From Deltaproteobacteria bacterium (GTDB lineage: Bacteria; Desulfobacterota; Dissulfuribacteria; Dissulfuribacterales; UBA3076): a stretch of 30,044 nt of DNA. The stretch lies in contig JALTHV010000134.1 in the NCBI GenBank assembly GCA_027004315.1, forward strand, positions 1 to 30,044. Direction: 5' to 3'. The notes under the pieces were generated by a model. The model made no database searches, was not told where the DNA came from, and worked only from the letters and a program-made list of their open reading frames with translations. Below are positions 7,890 to 30,035 of this stretch, one piece after another. A program made the position numbers and the translations under genes. Every line of letters starts with the position of its first letter. Positions within the stretch are counted from its first letter, which is position 1.

Positions 7890-8061
7890 GTAACCGTTCA
7901 CATTCCCCCCGGCCAGCAGCAGCCTTTTGAAGGATTTCAGGAGCATCGCCTGATGCACAATATCAGGGCACTCTGCCGATTAATCCGCACTGAAACCCTT
8001 CAAAATGCTACCGCTGGCCGGGGACATGGACGGTTCAACAGGAGGGGGTGTGAGCGGTTAC
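7890..8061. mobile_element. Family A MITE-like element, full length (172 bp)
   Basis: TIRs GTAACCGTTCAC / GTGAGCGGTTAC (11/12); perfect 8-bp duplication ATTAGAGT (7882-7889 / 8062-8069); internal IR 7909-7940 / 7990-8021 (28/32) around the 49-bp core; near reverse complement of 26082-26254. Confidence 0.92.
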
Positions 8062-10857: not shown

Positions 10858-11265
10858 GTATGCCCTATATGGGCATAGACTTATGAGGTTAAAGTCCTCT
10901 ATACGTAAACCGTCTACGTCCCCGGCTAGTGGTGGCATTTCCCAGGGTTTCAGGAGCATCGCTTGATGCACAAAATCGAGACGCTTCAAAAAGCTACCGC
11001 TGGCCAGGGAAGGAATGTGAATAGTTACAATTTCACTGCCTGATTCCGATGATAGCGAAAATATTAGCCGAAGGCAAGGGCATTGCCGCTAGGTGAGGTC
11101 TGGATGAAGTCGGATTGCAAAGCTGTGAGCCGGCGAATAGAAATGGCATATAAGGCCAAGTCCCTGGATAAGGCAGCACAAGATGAGCGAAGTCCTGAAT
11201 CTAGAAGATATGGTAAGGTAAATGCCGCGGCAGATTATCCAGTGAGATTACCGGCAGGGGTTTGC
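10858..11265 (+). ncRNA. Truncated group IIC (attC-type) intron, domain I only, interrupted by a MITE at 10905-11028
   Basis: 5' end GTATGCCC-TATAT-GGGCATAG...GAGG-TTAAAGT-CCTC, then after the MITE the ordered motifs TTAGCCGAAGGCAAGGG (11064), TCTGGATGAAGTCGGATTGCAAA (11099), CATATAAGGC (11147), GC-ACAA (11176-11181), AAGTCCT (11190), GTAAATG (11218), TTACCGGCAGGGGTTTG (11248). These are colinear with the O. iheyensis IIC intron as I recall it; no D5/D6 or RT ORF. Confidence 0.75.
10905..11028. mobile_element. Family A MITE-like element, internally deleted, core inverted
   Basis: AACCGTCTACGTCCCCGG arm as at 26110, core GAGCATCGCTTGATGCACAAAATC, right arm and end GTGAATAGTTAC (11017-11028); no target duplication found. 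Confidence 0.85.
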
Positions 11266-13309: not shown

Positions 13310-13343
13310 GTAACCGTTCACGAGAGGGAATGTTAACGGTTAC
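13310..13343. mobile_element. Minimal 34-bp family A element (two ends only)
   Basis: GTAACCGTTCAC-GAGAGGGAAT-GTTAACGGTTAC; flanks ACTGGTTA (13302-13309) / ACTGGTTC (13344-13351), 7/8 duplication. Confidence 0.85.
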
Positions 13344-15584: not shown

Positions 15585-15733
15585 CCTCCCCGTTCTCCTC
15601 GGCTACGCTCCGGAGCCGGGGTCTCCCATGCTGCAAAAACCAAGAAAACTACAGGGCTAACGCAAATCGTTTCCAAAAGAAGCACCCTGTGATCGGTTAC
15701 CAAAAATGATGCCCCAACTCATTGAGAAGTTGC
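15585..15733. repeat. Partial composite MITE-like element: one family B end inside one family C end, plus internal modules X and Y
   Basis: GAAGCACCCTGTGATCGGTTAC (ending 15700) then CAAAAATGATGCCCCAACTCATTGAGAAGTTGC, matching 1881-1923; modules at 15585-15609 and 15624-15649 match 26293-26317 and 26265-26291. Confidence 0.85.
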
Positions 15734-22787: not shown

Positions 22788-22861
22788 GTAACCGTTCACA
22801 TTCCCTCGGCCAGAGGTGGCCTTTTTCAAGGTTGTCTCTGGCCGGAGACATGAATAGTTGT
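22788..22861. mobile_element. Short (74 bp) family A element
   Basis: GTAACCGTTCAC start, eroded end ATGAATAGTTGT; flanks GCCTTACA (22780-22787) / GCCTTAAA (22862-22869), 7/8; internal IR CGGCCAGAG / CTCTGGCCG. Confidence 0.82.
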
Positions 22862-22961
22862 GCCTTAAATAGCCCGTTATGCGTAGCTTAACGCGCCTTG
22901 AAACCAAACAAAATTACTGTGCAAAAGGATAGATTGAAGGCTGTATCTTTTGGAAGTATCT

Positions 22962-24896: not shown

Positions 24897-25958
24897 TTAA
24901 AGGAGTATCCGGATCGTAGACCTTGATCTAAGTCTCTTGAGCCAATCTTCAAACCGGGCATTTATCTCCCTGCGGTAGAGCTTTTGCCGGATTTTCCCTA
25001 TATAAGCCCGTTCGTTTTTGTCCTCTCCAGCCCGTGTTATCTTCTTTAGTCTGAAAATCTGCCAGCCCATTGGAGTATCAACCACTTTGCTAAAATCGCC
25101 GGGTTTTAGCCCGGCTACTGCCTGTTTGACAAAGGGTGCCATCTCTTTCAGGGTAAAACTGCCCAGATATCCTCCATCTTCTTTATCTGAAGAGAGGTCA
25201 GAATAGCGTTTTACTATCGCCTTAAAACTCTTACCATTTTTTAGTGCCTTATAGGCCTCCTCGGCTCGTATTTTGGCCTCTTCCTTTAATTTGGGGTCAT
25301 TAGGATTTTTCGGGCTTATACATATGTGTTGCAGAATATAGAGCTGGCCACTATAATCATTTCTAAGATGTTGTTTTTTTATATATTTTTTGATCTCTTC
25401 ATCGGTTATTACTACCTTTGAACTTACCTGTCTATTTATAAGTCTTGCCCTCTCAATCTGTTTTTTTATTTCTTTTTTATATTCTTTTAGAGTTTTACCT
25501 TCAGAGTTAAGCTGAGCTACAAGCTCATCTATCGTCATGTAGTTCTGTTTACATATCCTGTCTAAGGCCTCTTGGATCTCTTGTTTATTTACGCTTATAT
25601 CGAGCCTCTTGATTTCTTCCTCTACAAGGTGCTCATCTATTAACTGCGGCAAGATATGATGCAGGATTTCCTGCTTTTTGGCCTCTATTTCTTCCTTAGT
25701 CATCCCTTTATTAATATATTTTTGAAATATAGGCCTTGCCGTATTTTCTAGTTCGGAAAGGGTAATTACATCTCCGTTTACTACAGCAACTATTCTATCG
25801 AAGATGACTCCATAGGCTGGGGGGCACTTGAATACGTTGAATATTAGGAGACCCGATATGCAGATAACTGCAAAGTAAAAAGAAGATGCCCGAATTGCGT
25901 ATCTAGTCTCTCTCCGGGGGAAAAACGGGGCTTCATTGACAAGGGGCTTCATATCCAT
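24897..25958 (-). CDS. surA: SurA-family chaperone / parvulin peptidylprolyl isomerase
   Basis: DRIVAVVNGDVIT, SurA N-terminal domain, GGYLG..EM..F...V..LKPG.FS.VV.T.MGWQI parvulin domain. Confidence 0.85.
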   Translation of the reverse strand: MDMKPLVNEAPFFPRRETRYAIRASSFYFAVICISGLLIFNVFKCPPAYGVIFDRIVAVVNGDVITLSELENTARPIFQKYINKGMTKEEIEAKKQEILHHILPQLIDEHLVEEEIKRLDISVNKQEIQEALDRICKQNYMTIDELVAQLNSEGKTLKEYKKEIKKQIERARLINRQVSSKVVITDEEIKKYIKKQHLRNDYSGQLYILQHICISPKNPNDPKLKEEAKIRAEEAYKALKNGKSFKAIVKRYSDLSSDKEDGGYLGSFTLKEMAPFVKQAVAGLKPGDFSKVVDTPMGWQIFRLKKITRAGEDKNERAYIGKIRQKLYRREINARFEDWLKRLRSRSTIRILL

Positions 25959-26004
25959 AGCACTCCATTTTTACAGTGAAAATAAGATGCTCTCCTGTTG
26001 TAAC

Positions 26005-26317
26005 GTAACTTCTCAATAAGTCCTGGCAACTTCGATGTAACCGATCACAGGGTGCTTCTTTTTCCAACATGCTCTCGCCCCGTAACCGTTCACACCCCCC
26101 TCCTGTTGCAACCGTCTACGTCCCCGGCCAGCAGTAGCATTTTGAAGGGTTTCAGTGCGGATTAATAGGCAGAGTGCCCTGATTTTGTGCATCAAGCGAT
26201 GCTCCTGAAACCCTTCAAAAGGCTACTGCTGGCCGGGGGGATGTGAACAGTTACCTCGCCCCTTGTTTTCTAAGGTTTTTGCAGCATGGGACCCTCCCTG
26301 TTCTCCTCCGCTGCGCT
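26005..26317. mobile_element. Nested MITE-like stack: family C end (26005), family B end (26037), with family A inserted inside B
   Basis: GTAACTTCTCAATAAGTCCTGGC, then GTAACCGATCACAGGGTGCTTC, then the A copy, then modules Y and X up to the mfd stop. Confidence 0.85.
26082..26254. mobile_element. Family A MITE-like element, full length (173 bp)
   Basis: TIRs GTAACCGTTCAC / GTGAACAGTTAC (11/12); perfect 8-bp duplication CTCGCCCC (26074-26081 / 26255-26262); internal IR 26124-26155 / 26205-26236 (31/32). Confidence 0.93.
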
Positions 26318-29300
26318 AAGGAATGCACCCATTCTTTGTAGCCATTTTTAGTATTACTTGCAAGGTCTGCCTTACACTTTCAAGACCATTCCCATCCTTT
26401 CTATCTGATTTAATAAGCGGGACTATCAGCCTGCCATCCGGCAACAGACGCCACCGCCGGTCTTTTTGTACCGCCTCTATGATCCTGTCTGGATGAGATG
26501 GACCCTCAGGCCCAAAATTCAGGACGATATACCCTTTTTTATCAGAAGAGGTCCTGTCAAGGCGTATCACGTTAAGCGATCTCAGGCTGCGTTTTATTCC
26601 AATTACTCCAAGGAGAGAGGAGATCTCTTTTGGGACCGGGCCGAAGCGGTCTTTGAGTTCCAGCAAGAAATCTGTATCTTCCTGTCCGTCTTTTAGGCGG
26701 GCCATTCTTCGGTAGAGGAGCAGGCGCTGTTCTACATCCGGGACATACTCTTCCGGGATGAATACAGGTATGCCCAGGTTTACTTCCGGATCTATCTCTT
26801 CCTTTTTAGGGAGTCCCTTGAACTCGTCTATAGCCCTCTGTAAGAGATCCAGGTAGAGTTCATATCCTACCTCTGCAATACTCCCTGACTGGGATACCCC
26901 CAAGATGTTCCCGGCCCCTCGGATCTGCAGGTCTTTCATTGCAAGGCGGAATCCGCCTCCGGATACAGAGAGTTCCATGATGGCCTTGAGCCTCTTTATA
27001 GGCCCTTTACCTAGATCGGACATACGGGGGGCAAGGAGATAGGCATAGGCCTGTTCATTGGCCCTTCCTATCCTTCCTCTCAACTGGTACAGATCTGCAA
27101 GACCCAGCCTGTCGGCCCGATTGATGATCATGGTATTTGCCGACGGTATGTCCAGGCCAGATTCTATTATAGTGGTACATACCAGGCAGTCGACCTCTCC
27201 CCTTACAAACCGGATCATGACCTCCTCAAGCTCATCAGGCCCCATCTGACCATGGATGACTTCTATTCTGGCCTTGGGGACCACTCGCTGGATGTACTCT
27301 GCCAGCCTGTATATGCCCTTTATCCTATTGTGTACAAAAAAGACCTGACCACCTCGGTTGATCTCCTGTTCTATGGCCTCTTTTATCAAGGAGTCATCGA
27401 ATTCGGCCATGAATGTCTTTATGGGCATACGGTCCCTTGGAGGGGTATTGATTACCGAGAGGTCCCGGATCCCCAGGAGGGAGAGTTGAAGGGTCCTGGG
27501 GATTGGAGTAGCGGTGAGCGTCAGGCAGTCAACTGATTGCTTAAGCCTCTTTAGTCTCTCTTTGTGCCTTACACCAAAACGGTGTTCCTCATCTACAATG
27601 AGTAGCCCCAGGTCCTTGAATTTCACGTCTGGCTGTAGCAACCGGTGTGTGCCAATGAGGATGTCAACCTGGCCCTGGCTGACCTTGGCAAGGACCTCTT
27701 TCTGCTTCTGCCTGGGTTTGAGCCTGCTTATGGCCTCTACAGTGACAGGGAATTGCTGGAATCTTTGCCTGAATGTCCGCTCGTGTTGTTCTGCCAGCAG
27801 GGTAGTGGGTACCAATATGGCAACCTGCTTTCCATCTTCAACTGCCTTAAATGAGGCCCTCATTGCGACCTCTGTCTTGCCGTAGCCCACATCTCCGCAC
27901 AACAGGCGATCCATGGGCTTGGGCTCCTGCATATCAGAGAGGATTTCCTCTATAGAGGTGGCCTGGTCCCGGGTCTCTTCATACGGAAATGCCGCTTCAA
28001 ACTGTCGGAACAGGGTATCAGGAGGCGAAAAGGCAAGGCCTTTGCTGACCTTTCTTGAGGCATAGAGTTCAACCAGTTCGTGGGCGATTTTATAGATACT
28101 CTTCTTGACCTTTTGTTTCGTAAGCTGCCAGCTTGAACTCCCAAGCCTGTCAATTCGAGGTGCACGACCTTCTATCCCTACATATTTCTGGATCAGGCCC
28201 AAGCGGTCCACTGGTAGATAGAGCCTGTCCCTGTCACGGTATTCGAGAAGCAGGAACTCCCCTGGAATTCCTGCGGCCTCTATACGCACAAGGCCCTGGT
28301 AGAGTCCCACACCATGGTCTCTGTGTACTACTGGTTGGCCGGGTTTGAGGTCTTCGAAGGTCAGACTCTCTACGGCGGTCCTCCTTCTCTTATGGGCCTT
28401 GGTCCGTCTGGCCTGTGTGCCCATGAGCTCTTCTTCTGTAAGGACTATGAGGGCCTCTCCTGGGAGGAGGAATCCCATAGATATCTGACCTGTACAGATC
28501 ATGAGGCCTGTTGCCACAGGGTCATTGGTCAAGGGGGCTGAGGATATGGGGACCTCTGCCTCAATAATCTCGTGATAGCTCAGGAGTTCAATTATCCTCT
28601 GGCCCTGACGTCTGCCAGGTACTACCAAGACAACCCTGTCTCCCGCCTCAATCCAGCCCTTGACCCGGTCAAGCGTCGGCCCGATGAGATCTCTTCCCCT
28701 CCGGACACCTCCAGGCACTAATGGCGATTCTGGCGTGCCCGTCTTGATCTCCAGCTCTTGAGTCTCCGGAACGGGGAAGTCGAAGGGAGATCCTTTGGAG
28801 ACCCGCTTGGTAAGTGGTTTGACATCTCGGAAGAGCCAGCAGGTATGGCCGCATATCTGCCCTGAGACCTCTTCAGGGTCAGAGAGATACGATCCCAGGG
28901 GGGCCAAGACCCTGTGTTCCTCAAGGGCCGATTTGTAGGTCTGCCTGGCCTCCTTCCAGTAGTTGCTCAAGGCCGCCTCGATCTCTTCGGGTCTTTCAAG
29001 GAGCAGGGGGGCCTGTTGAGGTATATAGTCCAGGAGAGAGGCAGGCCTGGGATAAAAGATGGGCAGTAAGGCCTCTTGTCCCTCTACCAGCCTCTTATCT
29101 TCCAGTTGTTGGAGGATTTCATGGATCCTCCGGGCAGACAAATCGTATTTTTCGGCCTCTCTGATCAGTCTCTCTTGAGCCGCTTCAATTAGGGGCTGGG
29201 AGAGGATGAATTCATGGGCCGGGAGTACAACTAATTCATTCAGATCCTCAGTCGAGCGCTGAGTAAGAGGATCAAAGAGACGCATCTCTTCCACAAAGTC

Positions 29301-29873
29301 GCCGAAAAAGTCTATCCGTACCGGGAGAGAAGTCATCGGCGGGAAGATGTCAAGCAGACTGCCCCTTACACAGAATTCTCCCCTGGACTGGACTACACTG
29401 GAGTGCTCATAGCCGGATTCAATAAGCCACTTGAGCAGTCCCTCGCGATCTACTTCCTCTCCCACCTGGAGATACTCTACATGGCCCAGGAGCGTCTTGG
29501 GCGGGAGCGTGAGCTCGGTAAGGGCCTGGACCGGGGCTACTGCCACGGCAGGTCCTCCTTCAGTGGCAAGACGGTAGAGGACCGATACCTTCTGACATGT
29601 TGTCTCACTTGAAGGAAGTAGGGGCACAAAGGGAAGCGAGTCACGACATGGATATAGCAAGACAGGCAGATCTGAGAAGAATGAAAGGTCTGTTATTACC
29701 CTCTCTGCATCCTTTTGCTGGGGCGTTATCCAGAGTATAGGCCGGTCAATAGACCTGAGGAGTCTCGAAATCATCCAGGCCGATGAAGTGCCTAAGAGAC
29801 CGTTTATGGCCAGGATACCCCCTGGACCTGCGAGAGACTCTTTGAGTTTTAAAAGTACCTGTTCAGTATTCAT
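26316..29873 (-). CDS. mfd: Transcription-repair coupling factor
   Basis: 1185 aa; UvrB-like N terminus, CarD/TRCF RID (VVHRDHGVG), CGDVGYGKTEVA, DEEHRFGV, QLRGRIGR, C-terminal TRCF domain. Confidence 0.99.
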   Translation of the reverse strand: MNTEQVLLKLKESLAGPGGILAINGLLGTSSAWMISRLLRSIDRPILWITPQQKDAERVITDLSFFSDLPVLLYPCRDSLPFVPLLPSSETTCQKVSVLYRLATEGGPAVAVAPVQALTELTLPPKTLLGHVEYLQVGEEVDREGLLKWLIESGYEHSSVVQSRGEFCVRGSLLDIFPPMTSLPVRIDFFGDFVEEMRLFDPLTQRSTEDLNELVVLPAHEFILSQPLIEAAQERLIREAEKYDLSARRIHEILQQLEDKRLVEGQEALLPIFYPRPASLLDYIPQQAPLLLERPEEIEAALSNYWKEARQTYKSALEEHRVLAPLGSYLSDPEEVSGQICGHTCWLFRDVKPLTKRVSKGSPFDFPVPETQELEIKTGTPESPLVPGGVRRGRDLIGPTLDRVKGWIEAGDRVVLVVPGRRQGQRIIELLSYHEIIEAEVPISSAPLTNDPVATGLMICTGQISMGFLLPGEALIVLTEEELMGTQARRTKAHKRRRTAVESLTFEDLKPGQPVVHRDHGVGLYQGLVRIEAAGIPGEFLLLEYRDRDRLYLPVDRLGLIQKYVGIEGRAPRIDRLGSSSWQLTKQKVKKSIYKIAHELVELYASRKVSKGLAFSPPDTLFRQFEAAFPYEETRDQATSIEEILSDMQEPKPMDRLLCGDVGYGKTEVAMRASFKAVEDGKQVAILVPTTLLAEQHERTFRQRFQQFPVTVEAISRLKPRQKQKEVLAKVSQGQVDILIGTHRLLQPDVKFKDLGLLIVDEEHRFGVRHKERLKRLKQSVDCLTLTATPIPRTLQLSLLGIRDLSVINTPPRDRMPIKTFMAEFDDSLIKEAIEQEINRGGQVFFVHNRIKGIYRLAEYIQRVVPKARIEVIHGQMGPDELEEVMIRFVRGEVDCLVCTTIIESGLDIPSANTMIINRADRLGLADLYQLRGRIGRANEQAYAYLLAPRMSDLGKGPIKRLKAIMELSVSGGGFRLAMKDLQIRGAGNILGVSQSGSIAEVGYELYLDLLQRAIDEFKGLPKKEEIDPEVNLGIPVFIPEEYVPDVEQRLLLYRRMARLKDGQEDTDFLLELKDRFGPVPKEISSLLGVIGIKRSLRSLNVIRLDRTSSDKKGYIVLNFGPEGPSHPDRIIEAVQKDRRWRLLPDGRLIVPLIKSDRKDGNGLESVRQTLQVILKMATKNGCIP

Positions 29874-29946: not shown

Positions 29947-30035
29947 GTAATCGGTCAAGGGTGCTTCGTTCTCGCCTCCTGTCTTCTGAGGCCAAGACAA
30001 ATCGTTTTCAGGTGAAGCACCCTGTAATCGGATAC
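29947..30035. mobile_element. Eroded family B element with both ends (89 bp)
   Basis: AGGGTGCTTC (29958-29967) / GAAGCACCCT (30014-30023) perfect IR inside degenerate GTAA..GATAC ends; flanks TAAATGAT / TAAATGTA (6/8); internal CTCGCCTCCTGTCTTCTGAGG matches the A-insertion site at 26074. Confidence 0.72.

Follow-up and report, generated by a model that had tools for sequence, protein, structure and literature searches.

Nested insertions of plant MITEs were reportedly used by Jiang and Wessler in 2001 to infer insertion preference, and the nesting in rice and maize is said to have reflected the sequence preference of the families involved. REP-targeting insertion sequences, such as IS1397 and ISKpn1, are also known. 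The ends of IS66 insertion sequences reportedly start with GTAA in ISfinder and are accompanied by 8-bp repeats. ISDge4, a published member of the ISBst12 group, carries the ends GTAACTGCTCAGCA together with a direct repeat of 8 bp (PMC12898284), and a passage of another paper cites IS1111 inserted in QMITE2 of Coxiella as a repeat-targeting insertion sequence (PMC10969869). Our literature search found no paper on the elements described below or on IS66-derived MITEs in Seep-SRB2-like bacteria.

The locus analyzed here holds sequences of three element families (A, B and C) in a 357-bp spacer separating a surA-like gene from mfd. Very probably, this spacer records two successive insertions of non-autonomous IS66-type DDE transposons together with a deletion, with the nesting a by-product of how densely elements fill the non-coding DNA, not of targeting. 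The window (30,044 nucleotides) is the whole of contig C134 of a metagenome-assembled genome (2.02 Mb in 410 contigs, 89% complete, 48% GC), a contig on which the short-read assembly ran through repeats. Some contigs of this MAG are ~80% identical at the nucleotide level to those of "Deltaproteobacteria bacterium E20SeepSRB2" and to Thermodesulfobacteriota MAGs, so the source organism is probably related to the Seep-SRB2 sulfate reducers. The unique flanks of the locus matched nothing in metagenome scans, which therefore provide neither an independent assembly nor an alternative allele. The features of the locus, by position in the window, are as follows:

24897-25958, minus strand: gene for a SurA-like peptidyl-prolyl isomerase (Pfam SurA_N and Rotamase), downstream of mfd on the same strand
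25997-26004, no strand: presumed left copy of the composite's target duplication, GTTGTAAC, 8 bases, assigned by position
26005-26021, plus strand: left end of the C shell, a 17-nt terminal repeat, GTAACTTCTCAATAAGT, from sequence
26022-26036, plus strand: 15-nt arm of the C shell, CCTGGCAACTTCGAT, from sequence
26037-26081, plus strand: positions 1-45 of the B core, with its 22-nt terminal repeat GTAACCGATCACAGGGTGCTTC; 98-99% identity to many 191-bp cores
26074-26081, no strand: left copy of A's 8-bp target duplication, CTCGCCCC (B sequence), from sequence
26082-26254, plus strand: complete A element, a 173-bp MITE with ends GTAACCGTTCACA and GTAACTGTTCACA, from sequence
26255-26262, no strand: right copy of A's duplication, CTCGCCCC, from sequence
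26263-26317, plus strand: B core positions 46-100 ("module X"); 99% over 100 nt to more than 10 copies
26316-26318, minus strand: mfd stop codon TAG (CTA on the plus strand), of which T is native, A is B position 100 and G is B position 99
26316-29873, minus strand: mfd, transcription-repair coupling factor, 1185 aa, every domain present (Pfam)
29947-30035, plus strand: short, diverged B-type mini-element of 89 bp, with flanks TAAATGAT and TAAATGTA matching at 6 of 8 positions

No ORF of at least 80 aa lies within 25959-26315, and an Rfam scan of 25900-26400 returned no family above threshold, only sub-threshold miRNA-like noise from the hairpin. A scan of the mfd-surA spacer for promoters and terminators found no promoter-like or terminator-like site, leaving no case for the hairpins as a classical mfd/surA terminator.

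The sequence-only reading of this DNA described an A element inserted in B with a perfect duplication, and both the description and its coordinates hold: the terminal repeats, the paired CTCGCCCC and dozens of empty-site paralogues all agree with it. When the flanks are rejoined without A, they match many copies in the genome over 100 nt, at 98-99% identity. Excising A along with one duplication copy yields the 30-mer CAACATGCTCTCGCCCCTTGTTTTCTAAGG, which is found uninterrupted elsewhere in the genome (23 exact matches, 44 with at most one mismatch and 59 with at most two); among the B copies of the assembly, only the window copy carries an A element at this site. Removal of A thus restores a colinear host of which uninterrupted copies exist, the mark of a nested insertion. 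The same reading had pointed to an uninterrupted B at 29971 as its control. A copy is indeed there, but as a diverged 89-bp mini-element it serves as a control far less well than do the B copies of 191 bp, which are 98-99% identical.

The relationship between B and C is of a different kind. Full B cores are 191 bp long, with perfect terminal repeats of 22-26 nt and a central hairpin, and they almost always sit between two 32-nt C ends with constant junctions, forming a 255-bp unit (CB255) present in 27 full copies. C termini consisting of terminal repeat and 15-nt arm number 330 across the genome. Units with C ends are flanked by a perfect 8-bp duplication in 66 of 113 cases and by one with a single mismatch in 20 more (shifted-flank control: 1/113), while none of 39 B cores inside C is flanked by a duplication. 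Because the junctions are constant and duplications around B are lacking, CB255 is a fixed composite that moves on its C ends, and the presence of B in C, previously counted as a nesting level in its own right, is not a separate event at this locus. A second composite, CA204 (43 units), has an A-type core in a C shell, with fixed junctions of 6 and 16 nt and no duplication. CB255 copies are 98-99% alike, so the family is young. Dating of the host by a CB255 consensus was discarded, as the palindromic, two-orientation structure muddled the consensus.

Related genomes bear on the origin of the composite. Stand-alone B elements of 191-193 bp occur in G006 and G010, both from sister genus g3, and 6 of 9 have duplications with no more than one mismatch, indicating that B was historically a free element. 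In G001, from the same genus as our MAG, the C terminal repeat lies 14-15 nt from the B terminal repeat as judged by coordinates, a spacing that suggests that B was captured in the C shell before the insertion at this locus.

Several further observations concern the architecture of these units. The two C arms can be told apart, and with respect to them the B core has one orientation in 35 copies and the other in 31, with identical junctions (compare C344:9411-9665 and C292:8656-8910), which suggests either frequent flipping between the 26-bp inverted ends or capture both ways. A C-shell variant of ~157 bp (for example on contigs C23, C184, C187 and C380) joins B positions 1-45, ending CTCTCGCCCC, without a gap to another hairpin module, CTCACCCTGCCCTCTCCCC...GGGTGAGGGG. 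Its breakpoint is the same CTCGCCCC that holds the A insertion in the window copy, and this octamer may be a recurrent recombination point. In G006, three stand-alone B copies (L139, L140 and L141) share near-identical flanks (…ggcaacttcaaagcaCAATGGAC before B and CAGTGGACcacgggt… after it); there, B sits within another repeated unit.

At our locus, the distal B and C ends are missing, as had been noted: B positions 101-191 (the right 91 nt) are absent, as are the C end on that side and the right-hand copy of the duplication around the composite, the last presumably lost together with the deleted half. B homology halts at 26317, within the loop of the B central hairpin, and the CB255 alignment ends at position 132. 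The composite is thereby cut at B position 100, where no other CB255 copy ends within a contig. Module X had been described as abutting the mfd stop codon; it does reach the stop, but it is B interior, starting at B position 46 or 59 and ending at 100, and B overlaps two bases of the codon itself. The Mfd C-terminus reads ...ATKNGCIP* here, ...ATKG* in genus g3 and ...AT* in G001. The orthologous mfd-surA spacers contain no A, B or C in genus g3 and only a 42-nt A fragment in G001, and the insertions at this locus are lineage-specific. In a by-eye comparison, the 16-nt stretch 26318-26333 is similar to the region of the stop codon in the relatives, a likeness that would place the deletion end-point ~13 nt past the ancestral mfd stop.

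The locus is therefore a record of two insertions, first of CB255 and then of A, and of a deletion, not of three nested insertions. A literal three-step history, in which B entered C and A then entered B, has in its favor the order in which the structure reads (C end, B end, A), the status of B as an independent MITE in sister genera and the existence of a coreless 68-bp C at C196:415-482. We nevertheless consider it extremely improbable: the C/B junctions at the locus are identical to those in other CB255 copies, the left side of B lacks a duplication here (the right is deleted) just as every B core inside C does, and the spacing of the terminal repeats in G001 suggests an older composite. 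Composites such as CB255 and CA204 do move as units, and A could accordingly have been inside CB elsewhere, with the nested unit then transposing whole on its C ends; yet no other CB in the assembly has A at CTCGCCCC, and with all 59 similar sites uninterrupted this course of events is very unlikely. Assembly error must also be weighed in a MAG this fragmented, since 88 of its 820 contig ends fall in these repeats and contig C358 ends exactly at CB position 132. Joining repeat copies of different loci, however, would not recreate an exact 8-bp duplication with colinear B on both sides of A. The junction of B with mfd, where a chimeric truncation might be suspected, is one of repeat to unique DNA and not a product of repeat collapse, and the end of C358 is as expected from a graph branch at a real junction. 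An artifact is thus scarcely credible.

The earlier suggestion was that each element offers the others a safe haven or a preferred target, with A transposition directed into B/C sequence or structure. In its favor, repeats are abundant: those with at least five copies account for 5.3% of the genome and occupy 27-30% of its non-coding DNA, several nestings exist, and two elements (A at C271 and CA204 at C284) struck the same 8 bp, TAAGTGGA, in a C end. The frequencies argue against targeting. We considered 103 A insertions that had a duplication (0-1 mismatch) and enough flank, 92 of them non-coding by a crude method of gene calling that takes every ORF of 100 aa or more as a gene and leaves 16.6% of the genome non-coding. 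Only 4 of the 92 lay in CB255-matching DNA, which constitutes 6.9% of the available space, versus 6.4 expected (P(X>=4) = 0.89). Under a uniform criterion for nesting in any repeat, applied to real and random sites alike, 3 of 100 A insertions were nested (18.9 expected), 13 were adjacent to a repeat (17.8 expected) and 84 were alone (63.3 expected). Part of this deficit may reflect the loss of nested repeats in short-read assembly; nesting either equals or falls short of what chance would give in non-coding DNA, and there is no excess. Nor does a target consensus drawn from all duplications, as had been proposed, reveal a strong preference: A's logo is a weak palindrome, Y-N-[V-N-T-N-N-A-N-B]-N-R, with ~0.3 bit at six positions, CTCGCCCC fits it poorly, and the four A-in-CB sites all differ from each other. 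C prefers AT-rich sites with TTA...TAA flanks. Within the bounds of crude gene calls and under-sampled nested repeats, A insertions show neither the excess over the repeats' share of DNA nor the site reuse of a repeat-targeting element. Because nesting does not rise above random, the outcome fixed beforehand as counting against targeting, that proposal falls while the nesting itself stands, and we regard directed insertion as very unlikely.

Relative age, too, is a local matter. A arrived at this locus after the B-containing element, as the sequence-only reading had concluded, but "A younger than B" does not extend to the families in general, since the reverse nesting also occurs: an A element hosts CB255 at C218:217-471, contigs C284 and C377 have CA204 within CB255, and at C295 an A core is interrupted by a C-type element of 138 bp.

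In the A element at the locus, the outermost 25 nt coincide with the end of an IS66-family insertion sequence, and an internal hairpin with 34-bp arms (26122-26155 and 26205-26238) encloses a 49-nt core; the element's single-strand fold has an energy of -53 kcal/mol (z = -9.6). The window copy is 96.6% identical to the A173 consensus of 98 copies, the seventh closest. Among 213 A-type pairs, the 8-nt flanks match perfectly in 68 and with one mismatch in 36, whereas shifted-flank controls with fewer than two mismatches number 0 of 213. Two pairs of near-identical contigs differ in the presence of A and offer clean empty sites: C387:1382-1553 versus C404:1431-1558 (98% identical contigs, with the duplication CTTGGGAC in C387) and C379:376-527 versus C168 (~96% identical contigs). 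Each pair reflects either an insertion polymorphism in the binned population or a difference between recent duplicates, and A has thus moved recently in the sampled population. The window also holds A/B/C family copies at 1720-1923, 7890-8061, 10905-11028, 13310-13343, 15655-15733 and 22788-22864. The copy at 1720-1923 is a CA204 composite, and one of the others, at the stop codon of RNase R, is a 34-bp element with nothing but ends.

Several features combine to place A, B and C among MITEs of IS66/ISBst12 type. The ends of all three start with GTAAC and all three have 8-bp duplications, a pairing that is the hallmark of this group, and partner elements with transposase genes exist for A and C. 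The elements themselves (A 173 bp, B 191 bp, CB 255 bp) lack transposase coding capacity. Repeats of the REP/BIME or attC type were also considered and dropped in view of the terminal repeats, the regular 8-bp duplications and the match to elements with DDE transposases. The only trace of an A-type autonomous partner in the MAG, in a tblastn search with the A-type transposase, is at C404:1-140, where the last 33 codons of an IS66-family transposase are followed by ...CAGGAGGGGGTGTGAACGGTTAC, the outer 23-25 nt of A173. A full A-type element of 1.65 kb is found in genome G009 (L013:111-1758), with ends GTAACCGTTCACTCCCCCCT... and a single 516-aa ORF that scores 217 bits with NF033517, above the 180-bit cut-off of this NCBIfam IS66 model, and 1e-31 with PF03050 (DDE_Tnp_IS66). 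G009 likewise has a complete 3.0-kb element with perfect C-type ends (L015:1781-4792, contig C70). Its 537-aa IS66-like transposase matches PF03050 at 1e-18 and reaches 129 bits with the NCBIfam model, below the cut-off, and beside it lies an ORF with a DruA/DUF4338 domain (PF14236, 3e-49). The L015 insertion sequence is positioned directly upstream of the likely start codon of a neighboring gene. A related C-type copy in G006 (L010) is cut by the contig start, and 30 of the 31 positions of its right end agree with the C arm. The L013-type and L015-type transposases are ~22% identical to each other, and neither full element in G009 has clear duplications.

Within our own genome, a PF03050 search gave no significant hit, neither the C-type transposase nor the DruA-like ORF had a match by tblastn, and a search for GTAAC...GTTAC pairs spaced by 0.6-5 kb and flanked by a perfect duplication came up empty. 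No transposase-bearing element with B-type ends was found either. Since no complete transposase gene of A or C type is assembled in this 89%-complete, 410-contig MAG, the case for current mobility in the strain is built on the C404 fragment and the insertion polymorphisms. Beyond this genome and its relatives, the exact C-type end GTAACTTCTCAATAAGTNNNGGC is present in >100 contigs from many phyla (L026-L105), often as pairs 110-240 bp apart. Its hosts include Seep-SRB2, UBA3076, Thiotrichaceae, Magnetococcales, Chlamydiae, Planctomycetes and Chlorobi, as well as the archaea Altiarchaeales and ANME-1, a distribution that points to a very widely spread insertion-sequence/MITE lineage with an unusually conserved end.

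The sequence of events that we favor, two insertions and a deletion, would have run as follows. CB255 would have inserted into the mfd-surA spacer as a ready-made composite. Its C shell would consist of the two ~32-nt ends of a 3-kb IS66-like insertion sequence, and its core would be the 191-bp B MITE with its own GTAACCGATCACA... ends, captured within the shell in an ancestor; since that capture, C and B would have moved as one unit on the C ends. The 173-bp A MITE would then have inserted into the B core, putatively mobilized in trans by an ISBst12-like transposase of the IS66 family, the product of a single-gene element that shares the 23-25-nt end, with staggered cuts 8 bp apart at CTCGCCCC and subsequent repair producing the duplication. 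Before or after the arrival of A, a deletion would have taken out the right part of B (positions 101-191) along with the C end beyond it and some neighboring spacer, reaching ~13 nt past the ancestral mfd stop and leaving a junction that supplies the AG of the new TAG. The anatomy, A's duplication, the empty sites, the 8-bp duplications across the families, the matching elements with transposases and the polymorphism of A copies are all observed. The trans-mobilization of A by IS66-family transposases, the order of the deletion relative to A and the route of B into C are reconstructions, and for trans-mobilization the evidence is indirect, coming from the A copies present in one and absent from the other of two near-identical contigs.

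A more speculative extension, which we put forward as possible though doubtful, is that C shells act as carriers: a captured B or A MITE would become a dual-ended composite that out-amplifies its parts, and nested insertions would be the raw material for new composite families. The 98-99% likeness of CB255 copies, compared with a median identity to consensus of 93% for A, is in keeping with such amplification. In that case, either of two distantly related IS66-type transposases could move a composite, and MITE "species" would be modular and recombining, with nested insertions not dead ends.

The value of the locus lies chiefly in annotation and assembly. GTAAC-ended families and their relatives are the chief part of the repeats with at least five copies, and such repeat density plausibly helps explain why MAGs of this sort come out as hundreds of contigs. 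The locus is also a clean, internally controlled example of IS66-type transposition chemistry, as reflected in the 8-bp duplication, and one in which a MITE remnant supplies part of the stop codon of an essential-type gene, mfd. The negative result on targeting shows that nesting in a MITE-dense bacterial genome requires no special mechanism.

Compared with known systems, the locus represents ordinary selfish-DNA biology in an element-rich genome, made mildly unusual by composites of a modular shell and a captured MITE and by the very wide phyletic spread of the C-type end. The elements resemble the ISBst12/IS66 group in their GTAAC starts (ISDge4 GTAACTGCTCAGCA versus C GTAACTTCTCAATA and A GTAACCGTTCACA), in their 8-bp target duplications and in having partners that encode DDE_Tnp_IS66 transposases, one with a single ORF. 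They differ in being non-coding and only 148-255 bp long and in their modular construction, with stacked sets of ends and hairpin cores in both orientations; moreover, the C-type partner carries a DruA/DUF4338 ORF, and its transposase falls short of the model cut-off. As in the nested MITEs of plants, one MITE lies within another with its own duplication, the host serves as empty-site control and the local relative age can be read, but nesting here is not above the expectation from non-coding space. A mobile element inside a short intergenic repeat also recalls the repeat-targeting insertion sequences, although those are site-specific, whereas here sites vary and the frequency fits chance. Finally, like mobile insertion cassettes and composite MITEs, C comprises two ends that bracket and move non-transposase DNA, in this case B or A; the cargo, however, is not a gene but a MITE of a related transposase family with functional-looking ends of its own.
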